Assembly (NCBI GenBank): GCA_964016885.1
Contig: OZ024743.1
Coordinates: 71,300,001-71,364,000 of the forward strand
From: Eledone cirrhosa
Taxonomy: Eukaryota
Direction of reading: 5' to 3'
Length of the DNA: 64,000 nt
The notes beneath the pieces were generated by a model. The model ran no database searches and was not told the origin of the DNA. It worked only from the letters and a program-made list of their open reading frames with translations. Shown in pieces: positions 12,494 to 39,146 of the stretch; position 1 is the stretch's first letter; each line of letters starts with the position of its first letter. The translations under genes and the position numbers were made by a program.

Positions 12494-12691
12494 GACGAAG
12501 GAAGTGTGGTAAGGAACCAGGTGGACCATAACGCACCAGAATGCTCGATACTTTGGGTAGTAGAGTGGGTAATAGGAAAATAGTCAGGACCCCGACGGCA
12601 GAGCTCAAGCCGTTTCGACGGCTATTTCTGTCCAGAAATAGCCGTCGAAACGGCTTGAGCTCTGCCGTCGGGGTCCTGACTATTTTCCTAT
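12494..12691. mobile_element. Fold-back element family X (half-hammerhead), palindrome 12572-12691
   Basis: Shared body GGACCATAACGCACC...GACCCCGACGGCAGAGCTCAAGCCGTTTCGACG followed by its inverted copy; between (TA)n tracts. Confidence 0.85.
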
Positions 12692-12859
12692 ATATATACT
12701 GTATATATATATATATATATAAATATAAATTAGCGAAGATCGTATTTCGGCTATTGGAAATTAGCGAAAGACACCTTCTGAGGAGTGAGGCAAGCGCTCC
12801 ATAGAAGCTAGTGTTCTAGAGCAACAACGTAAGTTAAGAGGCAAAACATATATATATAA

Positions 12860-12927
12860 TGCGTGTGTATGCGTGTGTATGCGTGTGTATGCGTGTGTAT
12901 GCGTGTGTATGCGTGTGTATGCGTGTG
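12860..12927. repeat. 10-bp tandem repeat (GCGTGTGTAT)n
   Basis: About 7 perfect units. Confidence 0.95.
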
Positions 12928-12949
12928 TCTGTCAATTTATGTTTGTTTG

Positions 12950-13320
12950 TGTATACATCTACATCACTTAACAACCTATTTGTTTGATTGGATCTTTTAA
13001 CTTAGCAGTTCGACAAATACAATTGATTGATAAGTAGCAGGCATAAAATAGAGCTGGGGTTAATATGATTCAATAAATAAAGGTGGTGCCCCAGCATGGC
13101 CATAGTATAATGACTGAAATCAGTAAAACAATCCTGGGGTTAATACGATCGGCTAAATCAAGGTGGTGCCCCAGTATGGCCGCAGTCAAACGACCGAAAT
13201 CAGTAAAATAAAGCTGGTGTTGATATGATTGACTAAATCAAGGTGGTGCTCCAGTATGGCGGCAGTATAATGACTGATGTAGGTAAAACAATCCTGGGGT
13301 GGTGCCCCAGCATGGTCTTG
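12950..13320 (+). mobile_element. SINE-like element with a tandemly reiterated LINE-derived 3' tail
   Basis: GGTGGTGC(C/T)CCAG(C/T)ATGG occurs four times (~80-bp period) and matches the LINE 3' end at 41991-42052. Confidence 0.65.
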
Positions 13321-13602
13321 GATGTGATGCCTGGGTAAAGAATACGATGAGGTGTAGAGATACAAAGACAAATATGTATATATATATATATATATATATA
13401 TATATATATATATATATATATATATATATATATATACGTTCAGCACATCGGTAGGGGTTCTCCTACATGGATCTAAAGTAGTGGCTGTACTCGAAAACGA
13501 GTTGGCAGCCACCATATATATATATATATATATATATACATATGTTGATTTAAAACTGCACTATCAACAAGTGTTTTTTAGCCTTCATATCATGTTCTCC
13601 TG

Positions 13603-13669
13603 TTTTATCTGATGAAAACACAAATATTATTGTTTGATGATGTTTGTTTTTGAAATGCGCATAATAAAA
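13603..13669 (+). ncRNA. Minimal type-I hammerhead ribozyme with long stem II
   Basis: TTTTAT CTGATGA AAACA-CAAATATTATT-GTTT-GATGATGTTTG-TTTTT GAAA TGCGCA TA ATAAAA. Confidence 0.85.
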
Positions 13670-13699
13670 TATATGGAACTCCTTTAACCATCTTTTGAT

Positions 13700-36166: not shown

Positions 36167-36467
36167 TATATATATATATATATATATATATATATATATA
36201 TATATATATATATATGTAAGTATGTATGTATACGTACATACATATATGTATACAGACGTACAGTAGCATGCATATATATATATATATACATATATATACA
36301 CATATGCATACAGGTACACATACATATATGCACGCATCAGTTTAGTCGGCGTTTATTATAACGCCGGCCGCTTTGTTCGTTTGTTTGTCAACAAAGCGAA
36401 CAGCCTGAATTTATGCCATACGGTGTTAAGGCAACCACGTCAGCTTTTTGTTCAACACTGACACAGG

Positions 36468-36512
36468 AACGATGTACTAGTTTCAAGCTTGTTAGCTATC
36501 ATCAGCACCGTT
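36468..36512 (-). ncRNA. Minimal type-I hammerhead ribozyme (left arm)
   Basis: Reverse complement of 36835-36879. Confidence 0.88.
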
Positions 36513-36834
36513 TACCCATCTGCCAGATAGTTGAACGTTCGAAAGTATATACTTTCCTTATGAAAATTAACGGCTGAGCAGCCTAATTTGCATATTGAGT
36601 GAGTTATATACATCTGTATACATATATGTATGTACGTATACATACATACTTACATTTAAGTAAGTGCCATACTAAGAGTGAGAAATGAAATTTCGTTTTC
36701 ATTTTTTTCAACTTATCGTTTTCGGTATGCCTGACCGATTTAACTCACTCAATATGCAAATTAGGCTGCTCAGCCGTTAATTTTCATAAGGAAGGTATAT
36801 ACTTTCGAACGTTCAACTATCTGGCAGATGGGTA

Positions 36835-36879
36835 AACGGTGCTGATGATAGCTAACAAGCTTGAAACTAGTACATCGTT
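36835..36879 (+). ncRNA. Minimal type-I hammerhead ribozyme (right arm)
   Basis: AACGGTG CTGATGA T AGCT-AACA-AGCT T GAAA CTAG TA CATCGTT. 7-bp stem I, palindromic CTAG stem III. Confidence 0.9.
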
Positions 36880-38632
36880 CCTGTGTCAGTGTTGAACAAA
36901 AAGGTGACGTGGTTGCCTTAACACCGTATGGCATAAATTCAGGCTGTTCGCTTTGTTGACAAACAAACGAACAAAGCGGCCGGCGTTATAATAAACGCCG
37001 GCTAAACTGATGCGTGCATATATGTATGTGTACCTGTATGCATATGTGTATATATATATATATATGCATGCTACTGTACGTCTGTATACATATATGTATG
37101 TACGTATACATACATACTTACATTTAAGTAAGTGCCATACTAAGAGTGAGAAATGAAATTTCGTTTTCATTTTTTTCAACTTATATATATATATATATAT
37201 ATATATATATATTTATTAACATATTTATTAATTTATTATATATATTTATTATATTAGTATATATATAAATATATATATATATATATATATATATATATAT
37301 ATATATATATATATATATATATATATATATATATATATATATATATATATATATATATATATATACACACATATATATACATACATTTACGTATATAAAG
37401 GTACGTTTTATGTTACAAACGGGAGGAATGGAACCCAATTCACTCTCATTCTGTTCTATATAAATGAAGGCAGTTTTTGTCTCCCTGTTCTTATCAGAAA
37501 AAGTGTCTTCTTATTTAATTGTTTCCCTGTCTTCATGTCTACCTGTTAATCTATCAGTCCGTATTGTCTTGTCTAGCTGTCAGTATGTTTCTCTGTCTAC
37601 ATGTCTATTTCACTACATGTCTATCTACCTACATTTACTAAATCAATAATCCCTAAATTGTGTCTTATTGTTGAACTGAAGAACACTATGATAAAAGTAC
37701 TTAGAAATAAAGGATTAAAATTAGGAAACAGGAAGAGAGAAAAGTGGGGTAGCTGTAAATGAAATAATATAAGGAAGGGGGAAAGTGTAAGTAAGGGGTA
37801 AAACCGGGGTAAAAAGGGGGACAACTCTACACTCTTGACTAAGTGGTATCTGTCAACTGCACTCCACGAACAATAAGAGAACAGCCAGCGACACCCGCTG
37901 CATCAGCCATTCAATCTCGGAATGTTACAAACTCGAGCAAAATGCACATCACCCGATTTTCCGGAGAAAAGCCCAGTCGAGGTCCCGAGGACACTAGATG
38001 TTCGAAAAAGAAAACGGTTGTTCAAGTCCCGCTATTTGAATATCTTCTGTTTCTCTGCGTTACGGGCGGCGTTGATTGAGTTTGTGCTCTAAAATTGGAA
38101 TTGGAGAATTCATAAGCAAATTAGAAGTAAAGTTGATTAAATCAGCCTCAGTATATGACTGGTATTTTAATTTATCAACCCAAGATGGATGATATATATA
38201 TATATATATATATATATATATATATCAACCCAAGATGGATGATATATATCTATCTATATATATAAAGAAAGAAGAAACATAAATAAATAAATAAATAAAT
38301 ACCTATTATTTCTTCACATTCTCGACTACAGTTTTGTGGCTACTTTGCAAAAATCCTATATCATAGAGATGTAGTATCCTTGTGAGGTTTGCCAACTTAT
38401 CAAGAGAATACCTCATATAAAGTTTCAAAACAGTTCCGTATCGCGCGAGAGATATAATGTATTATATATCTCTGATATAGAGTCAATTTAATTCATTCCG
38501 ATTATTTTGTCCCTCTTAATCATAGAGCAACAACGGTTAAGGTTGGCAACACACAATCTCACATACTTGTGAAAGATATATGTGTGTATATGCATGTATA
38601 TGTATGTATTCCCATGTATCTGTGTATTTCTC

Positions 38633-38816
38633 GGTGGATTGGCAGTATCGGTAGAGGGTCGGACGCTATGCTTTGACGTATAGAGTTACGGCCCTTGCCA
38701 TTCTGAGTTCAAATCCCGCCGAGGTTAACTTTGCCTTTCATCCTTACGGGGTCGATAAAATAAAGTACCAGTAATGCTCTGGGTAATTGCTGGCCTTGTG
38801 CCAAATGTAGAAACAT
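38633..38816 (+). mobile_element. SINE family A
   Basis: Full-length consensus match. Confidence 0.88.
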
Positions 38817-39035
38817 GTATTGTATATATATATATATATCAGGTAGATATTTAAATCATTTTTTAATTTATTTAAAGGATTGTTTAATGTTTGTTTGTTC
38901 TGCTCATCAATTTTTATAGTTCTGGTATCTCCAATTAGTACTCAGTACTCAGTGAGATATTTACCTCATATATATATATATATATATATATATATATATA
39001 TATATGTGTATGTATATATATATATATATATAAAA

Positions 39036-39146
39036 CAAAGGAACAAAGTGGACCATAACGCACCAGACTACTCGATACTCAGGGTAGTAGAATGGGCAAT
39101 AGAAAAAGAGTCAGGACCCCGACGGCTGAACTCCGGCCGTTTCGAA
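39036..39146. mobile_element. Family X single arm (no fold-back)
   Basis: GGACCATAACGCACC...GGACCCCGACGGCTGAACTCCGGCCGTTTCGA. Confidence 0.75.

Follow-up and report, generated by a model that had tools for sequence, protein, structure and literature searches.

The 64,000-nucleotide stretch of the Eledone cirrhosa genome analysed here (contig OZ024743.1, positions 71,300,001 to 71,364,000; hereafter the window, part of a 3.0-Gb genome) carries seven copies of a short repeat, family X, most of which consist of two arms joined head to head. The copies are almost certainly derived from a young Penelope-like element (PLE) of the Hydra clade, as 5′-truncated, head-to-head copies of its pseudo-long terminal repeat (pLTR). 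Our overall best explanation, which we consider probable, is that they are twin-primed, run-off and end-joined copies of that pLTR. An original prediction, made from the sequence alone, had instead invoked a stall of reverse transcription within a ribozyme stem, followed by self-priming of the inverted arm. The observation behind it is real and its predicted parent was largely right; its mechanism is wrong. Positions within the element are counted from the G of the GAAA motif (position 0), and the predicted ribozyme cut falls between C22 and G23. Arms ending at +122 are referred to as tail arms and those ending at +42 as short arms.

Family X in the window and in the genome

All seven copies (12494, 23757, 25053, 28744, 28984, 36080 and 39036) were confirmed, each reading GAAA-CGGC-loop-GCCG-TC-GGGGT and sitting within or next to a (TA)n run. 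As had been noted, the body represents a type I hammerhead reduced to its 3′ half, and no family X copy in the window carries the 5′ core. Four copies had been described as folding back, and those at 12494, 23757, 25053 and 28744 are indeed head to head; that at 36080 makes a fifth, with grossly unequal arms, so that the count stood too low. The three apex sequences quoted for them were correct. The supposed hairpin, taken for stem II, is the centre of a new palindrome; stem II of the parent has a different 5′ strand.

Genome-wide, the exact fold-back pattern was found at 15,834 loci compared with 0 for a reversed control pattern, so the fold-backs are not due to chance. A 30-nt tail pattern gave 34,705 matches. 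Position-chosen stretches contained 18 insertions per 490 kb, corresponding to roughly 100,000 genome-wide with a sister family counted in, and these are mostly head-to-head solo pLTRs of ~200 bp. In contigs assembled from independent short-read runs, arms of opposite strands are joined, loose ends with (AT)n occur at +43 and +123, and the depth changes by a step of roughly 10-fold near −13, which rules out an assembly artefact.

The parent element

The parent comprises a 784-codon open frame inside 3,531-bp tandem units, whose identity reaches 100%. Its pLTR corresponds to the family X body, which continues into the following open frame, and ~1.1 kb of non-coding sequence lies between the open frame and the ribozyme. 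Open frames that are still intact occur in the genome, as do arrays whose units are identical, and the element looks active. A single-sequence fold of the protein (predicted local distance difference test, pLDDT, 32) was discarded for an alignment-based model (pLDDT 92.9), whose best match in the Protein Data Bank (PDB) was telomerase reverse transcriptase (TERT; 3du5, E 1.5e-8). The protein has 819 homologues, and YRDD is present in 116 of 116 aligned relatives. Pfam and PDB sequence searches of the open reading frame (ORF) returned no matches, nor did its protein give a direct hidden Markov model match to a GIY-YIG endonuclease. A VIY...YIG motif spans residues 589–606 of 715, and Atlas neighbours at 0.96–0.97 carry PF01541 on 26–50% of their members and RVT_1 or GIY-YIG on some of them. 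By motif and neighbours, the C terminus is thus assigned as a putative endonuclease of the GIY-YIG type.

The motifs RWR, DKT, CNCPDRSIC, CNLC and CKH occur in 110, 102, 111, 115 and 114 of the 116 aligned rows, respectively, and only one Cys lies between VIY and YIG, and CCHH is absent. The Hydra clade is defined by an RWK-type motif, DKT, a CxCX5C linker, CxxC and CxH without CCHH, and targets (TA)n (PMC8557442); the correspondence on each point, including (TA)n insertion, leads to the Hydra-clade assignment. A Neptune-like reading of the ORF was overturned by these motifs. Tandem arrays of 3,531 bp, head-to-head arms and 3′ ends at +42/+122 are likewise those of a PLE. Set against the Hydra references by motifs and by eye, the element is, as far as such a comparison carries, a new family in a known clade with an unusual ribozyme.

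Family X is therefore a retroelement, as had been supposed. A miniature inverted-repeat transposable element (MITE) or a Helitron was rejected on account of the asymmetric ends (+42/+122) and of the body, which is a pLTR belonging to an element that encodes a reverse transcriptase (RT). A non-LTR retrozyme, which consists of short head-to-tail units with a complete hammerhead, was also rejected, as the short copies are head to head and without the 5′ core; the short tandems at loci L368 and L398 likewise begin at −17 to −21.

The 5′ hot spot as a probable template end

Breakpoints were expected to cluster in stem II, and they do: 53 of the 62 tail arms that reach −10 stop between −25 and −10. 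The main 5′ end lies at −18 and, less often, at −21/−22, both on A residues. A stall of RT in stem II had been put forward as the cause. However, none of the 14 long complementary DNAs (cDNAs) that cross an upstream pLTR stops at the hot spot (insertions C1a, C1b, C2a, L214–L217, L258, L370, L377–L379, L385 and L386): 12 read through and two ended at +77 and −4. The probability of this outcome under the stall model is ~1e-10, which contradicts a structural stall. Among 28 distinct loci whose pLTR runs into the ORF, 13 are concatemers in which the cDNA proceeds to −15 to −21 and then jumps to +184 to +940, and 10 of these 13 finish again at −12 to −21. In L368 and L398, the same jump is made two times over, as though RT had gone round a short RNA whose ends were fixed. 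Beyond −18, the parental letter is kept in only 20 of 71 truncated arms, among which no common upstream sequence was found. Splicing or trans-splicing at AG sites near −17/−12 was considered and is unlikely, as there is no shared upstream exon or leader. We conclude with high confidence that the hot spot corresponds to the end of the template, i.e. the 5′ end of the RNA.

Both −18 and −21/−22 lie in contexts (TCATTT and TTAGTC) that we take to be initiator (Inr)-like, and the youngest subfamily has a TATA-like run ~25 nt upstream of the 5′ ends. PLE promoters have been located in the pLTR (PMC2377424; PMC3846280) and described as a TATA box, 20 bp and an Inr-like element (PMC3846280). The Inr-like A residues and the pLTR-borne promoters make a transcription start the likeliest cause of the hot spot, and the balance leans towards a candidate RNA polymerase II start within the stem II loop. 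Several points weigh against it. The Inr-like reading depends on a general consensus; there is no cap signature, the extra letters at −19 being C in 23 cases, G in 19 and A in 9; and the only RNA run found (X1, share 0.06; contigs) held one unrelated contig from elsewhere in the stretch and was uninformative on starts. Moreover, no full-length cDNA ends at −18 of an upstream unit, contrary to a simple model with a promoter in every unit, so that a second class of template must be assumed.

The alternative that survives best keeps twin priming but ascribes the −18/−21 end to RNA cut in the stem II loop by a host or element nuclease, or to other processing. It fits the template-end evidence equally well, accommodates the missing cap signature and the missing full-length cDNAs, and places the cut in a predicted loop region. 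As it leaves aside the position of both ends on A in contexts that are Inr-like by consensus, the TATA-like run of the youngest subfamily and the published location of PLE promoters, we regard it as unlikely.

Of note, the jump acceptors (L367–L398) cluster at +184 to +339, just within the ORF, where short transcripts that were aborted may have had their 3′ ends. At L213 (the C1b array, 18171–19989 of the joined stretch), an array of five units begins at its 5′ end with more than 30 head-to-tail repeats of a 55–58-nt ORF segment (−1795 to −1738), which suggests reiterative copying by RT. An end at −1797 recurs in L258 and L315 and is a possible further template end.

Two 3′ ends and the comparison of arms

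In the youngest subfamily, the 3′ ends of arms fall at +42 (99 arms) and +122 (94), with at most 6 at any other position, and both ends are found on plain direct copies as well. This agrees with the PAc element, for which two RT start sites in vitro account for the PLE ‘tail’ and both target strands are extended (PMC11167929).

If the inverted arm were made by snap-back from a tail-primed cDNA, the tail arm would always have to reach at least as far 5′ as its partner. A sample of 96 tail-anchored copies of the 34,705, taken from contig C1 within its first 19 Mb, included 74 with an inverted arm. The 43 short copies with both ends at −35 to −9 divide into 20 in which the short arm has the longer 5′ reach, 17 in which the tail arm does and six with equal arms, which contradicts snap-back. 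At L192, L239, L243, L263, L271, L276, L281 and L289, the short arm reaches −15 to −22 and the tail arm starts only at +9 to +76; tail-arm starts at +17, +33 and +34 that represent internal deletions were left out of this asymmetry count.

The long insertions are not mirror images either. Among 51 loci or arrays, 29 long junctions were cleanly resolved against the young reference by hand count, the others having no partner in range or being too diverged. In 28 of the 29, one +42 arm is joined to one +122 arm; the +42 arm has the greater reach in 17 cases, compared with 11 for the tail arm. No more than three lie within 60 nt of a mirror image (reach pairs are, for example, −161/−1566, −690/−3219 and −2598/−154), and the joins show chiefly 0–6 nt of overlap or short inserts. 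Since each long arm holds sequence missing from its partner, both must have been copied from RNA. In array C2a, an arm spanning −3 to +122 is joined to the ORF interior.

The mechanism originally proposed, namely a stall in stem II followed by fold-back of the cDNA to self-prime the inverted arm, with a later cut at +42 and apex differences due to hairpin trimming, has some evidence on its side. The short copies are near-mirror palindromes, and their arms are usually of one subfamily and sometimes have private changes in common, as in the copy at 23757. The centre of a palindrome is easily lost by deletion, so that the originally longer arm could be hard to recognise. Self-priming of PLEs has also been inferred from palindromes at inverted junctions (PMC3846280). 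Later trimming could thus obscure the short copies, but not the long junctions, in which the +42 arm contains sequence that the tail arm lacks in 17 of 28 cases, often hundreds to thousands of bases, and the tail arm contains +43 to +122, which are missing from the +42 arm. Together with the C2a array, the symmetry of the short copies, the +42 ends of plain direct copies and the read-through of the hot spot, this leaves snap-back largely refuted for the long insertions and improbable as an account of the family. Nor is a ribozyme stem needed as a snap-back primer, as had been suggested, given that other fold-back families in the window turn upstream of an intact ribozyme. We favour twin priming over snap-back with considerable confidence.

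The weakest alternative, a short palindrome that copies itself as a non-autonomous unit (MITE-like or resembling a short interspersed nuclear element, with apices eroded later), could explain why short copies are several-fold commoner than intact 5′ halves and why some apex types recur, but is very improbable in view of identical apex types in different subfamilies and both polarities, the presence of every checked subfamily block on long or autonomous copies as well, asymmetric ends (+42/+122) in place of terminal inverted repeats, and jump concatemers that hold ORF sequence missing from short copies.

Coupling of the two arms

Of the first 100 intact cores, 54 lie in 27 head-to-head pairs (hand count), although such arms are a small share of all arms, and at 16 further intact-core loci none had a partner ending at −25 to −10 (one locus proved to be a pair). 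A subfamily block is common to both arms in 58 of 112 pairs compared with eight when shuffled. The arms are therefore not independent, consistent with a shared template. Weighing against a single RNA, the arms disagree in common haplotypes in four of the 112 pairs, and a −17 arm is joined to a +23 arm in some copies, so that two RNAs were used sometimes.

The hammerhead

A search for intact 5′ halves, with T/C allowed at position 3 and A/G at position 8, returned 4,280 genomic matches. The predicted parent therefore largely exists, with stem I ACCCC/GGGGT and the CGGCTATT stem II strand, but its core is mostly not the CTGANGA expected: most matches to that canonical core were due to chance or to junctions, and no more than 12 were true parents. 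Among 139 fetched intact ribozymes, the 3/8 pair is U-A in 86, C·A in 38 and C-G in 12 (C-G having been selected for). Cores mostly read TTGAGAA (U3-A8) or CTGAGAA, with position 7 variable. U3-A8 is a natural variant described in PLE hammerheads (PMC4209133).

The minimum-energy RNA fold of the youngest parent (U3-A8) is a three-way type I hammerhead junction, and the modelled structure has three helices, the conserved core, a 3-8 pair, G10.1-C11.1, GAAA and an NUH site, as predicted for a type I hammerhead. This assignment has to be set against a fold stability that equals that of shuffled sequences (z 0.01), and Rfam finds no hammerhead in the window or the parent.

A second 5′ end at the predicted ribozyme cut

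Mini fold-backs of the U3-A8 subfamily, defined by at most 20 nt between the two stem I arms, were found at 179 loci. In 41 of the first 50 (hand count), both arms end at G23/G24: 17 of these junctions abut directly, nine have one A or T between the arms and 15 have other short inserts. A jump at L375 also starts at +23. These ends likely reflect the hammerhead’s own cut after GUC, with run-off from the 3′ product, the cleavage itself being predicted from sequence.

Two observations speak against this. In the subfamily with a mostly C3·A8 core (23 of 33 unselected cores), for which poor cutting is expected, +23 ends are equally frequent: 89 mini fold-back loci compared with 179, from 24 compared with 50 arms, with ~35 of the first 50 ending at +23. 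The explanation may be cutting of this core in vivo, supply of the product by the U3-A8 members of the subfamily (10 of 33) or another cause. In addition, the 17 perfect CCCCGGGG junctions among the 41 could also arise by CG microhomology. The C3·A8 subfamily (L179, L214, L302, L304, L319 and others) was highly active despite the mismatch.

Proposed mechanism

We propose that, within a (TA)n run, each of the two strands would be nicked by the nuclease of the element and that two cDNAs would begin at the internal sites +42 and +122 of one RNA. Both would run off the 5′ end of the RNA and then be joined end to end. A transcription start at −18 would leave the 5′ ribozyme copy of the RNA without its catalytic 5′ half, with the downstream copies complete, and the minor 5′ end of the template at +23 would result from the hammerhead cut after GUC. 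Long and tandem copies would derive from templates without the −18 end, either by tandem read-through or from cleaved units that are re-joined or jumped across; re-joining of cleaved units was proposed earlier (PMC4209133).

A broader picture follows, which we put forward tentatively as plausible rather than probable. The promoter would lie inside the element’s own ribozyme, so that the 5′ copy is born unable to cut, unlike all copies downstream; a dimeric RT-nuclease would prime both target strands at two fixed sites of one RNA; the ~100,000 insertions would record, to the base, transcription start, in vivo cleavage and template jumping; and twin priming, in place of self-priming, would be the general source of the inverted repeats of Penelope elements.

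Individual copies and further features of the window

At 12494..12691, a head-to-head solo pLTR has its tail arm on the minus strand (+122 to −14) and its short arm on the plus strand (−17 to ~+42), with a 1-nt overlap; here it is the short arm that has the greater 5′ reach. The solo pLTR at 23755..23954 has the same orientation (tail arm +122 to −17, minus strand; short arm −17 to +42, plus strand) and a perfect apex, and the private changes common to both arms indicate one template or homogenisation afterwards. Likewise, at 25051..25246 the tail arm runs on the minus strand (+122 to −12) and the short arm on the plus strand (~−18 to +42). The solo pLTR at 28744..28931 has the opposite polarity (short arm minus, tail arm plus), with both arms reaching ~−18, two extra letters at the join and a small internal deletion in the tail arm. 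In the unequal head-to-head copy at 36081..36167, the short arm (minus strand) extends from +27 to −18 and the tail arm (plus strand) starts only at +82, so neither arm can have been copied from the other.

The two remaining copies belong to the sister family, which has the loop CGGAGCTCA/CGGAGTTCA and another stem II 3′ strand. A single short arm with a +42 end lies at 28984..29049 on the minus strand, and a single tail-type arm with its 5′ end at ~−2 lies at 39036..39145, also on the minus strand. This family (28984–29049 and 39036–39145; also L069, L039, L097 and L253) has the same stem I and tail as family X and differs in the stem II 3′ strand and loop 3. It likewise makes fold-backs.

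Other hammerhead-bearing repeats were noted in the window. Another head-to-head family at 11992–12117 contains a complete type I hammerhead-like motif with a CTGATGA core, a GUA cut site and a 6-bp stem I, and turns just upstream of stem I; it has relatives in L014 and L037. A fold-back with 108-bp arms at 25452–25673 contains an intact minimal hammerhead with a long stem II and a palindromic TATATA loop 3, its apex lying ~28 nt upstream of the ribozyme. Minimal hammerhead motifs with stem I TTTTAT/ATAAAA occur at 13601–13671 (plus strand) and 12355–12422 (minus strand), and a degenerate relative is found inside the fold-back at 35584–35982. Further long fold-backs (2412–2866, 35584–35982, 63033–63499 and 36282–37065) have arms of 199–328 bp, most beside (TA)n, and are probably other PLE families of like head-to-head anatomy. 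Tandem repeats with 80-bp and 183-bp units lie at 13054–13300 and 19538–19989.

Comparison with known systems

Published work already describes the Hydra clade and, for PLEs, pLTR hammerheads, tails, inverted 5′ copies and the targeting of (TA)n. The tail has been accounted for by ‘EN-mediated resolution’ (PMC8557442), and the origin of inverted and tandem PLE insertions and hammerhead cutting in vivo are stated as open in PMC8557442, PMC4209133 and PMC11167929. Within the openly accessible literature, with most subscription papers, including the 2005–2006 PLE reviews, lying outside this scope, nothing was found on twin priming of PLEs, on insertions whose ends coincide with the hammerhead cut or on transcription starting within the ribozyme. 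The thousands of young junctions in family X separate models of PLE insertion: they speak against self-priming (PMC3846280) and in favour of twin priming that begins at the two RT starts known from in vitro work. They also locate junctions precisely at the ribozyme cut, and an exact 5′ end of the RNA is predicted from them. Owing to the intact frames and arrays of identical units, the PLE mechanism becomes testable at base resolution with a natural telomerase-related RT.

Hydra-1_Obim and the Hydra clade (Craig et al. 2021, PMC8557442) have in common with family X a single ORF, YRDD, a hammerhead near the 3′ end and a tail at one end, as well as tandem and inverted insertions and (TA)n targets. 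By eye only, the N-terminus and RT blocks of Hydra-1_Obim resemble those of the family X parent, but it is not the same family. Family X is set apart by its 3.5-kb unit, a 3′ non-coding stretch of ~1.1 kb, a tail of 80 nt (30–40 nt being typical) and another ribozyme, with a U3-A8 core, a 54–57-nt stem II and a 4–5-bp stem III.

The minimal hammerheads of PLEs (Cervera and De la Pena 2014, PMC4209133) resemble that of family X in being type I, in pLTRs, with a long helix II, a short helix I and a palindromic loop 3, in U3-A8 covariation (Schistosoma Cercyon) and in occurring as opposite-strand pairs 100–700 bp apart. In contrast, helix III of family X is long enough for a monomer, stem II contains an inner hairpin, and most genomic copies are cut off at a fixed point without the 5′ half. 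That study reports no evidence of cleavage in vivo.

A mechanistic parallel is the Poseidon PLE PAc from Anolis (Frangieh et al. 2024, PMC11167929), studied in vitro. As proposed for family X, the tail is set by two internal RT starts that lie downstream of the ribozyme cut, both strands of the target are cut and extended, the target is AT-rich and mostly uncleaved RNA is used. PAc is of another clade; that study found no RNA reads with ends at the ribozyme cut and, in the portion available, does not explain inverted copies. Family X differs in that its genomic junctions coincide with the cut and with a second, discrete end upstream.

Jumping of RT from the template’s 5′ end onto another RNA is known for R2. 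In L1 twin priming, two target nicks each prime a cDNA and the products are joined by microhomology; the second primer anneals upstream, which gives a non-overlapping inversion. In family X, by contrast, primers at fixed sites 80 nt apart would copy the same stretch and yield a head-to-head duplication.

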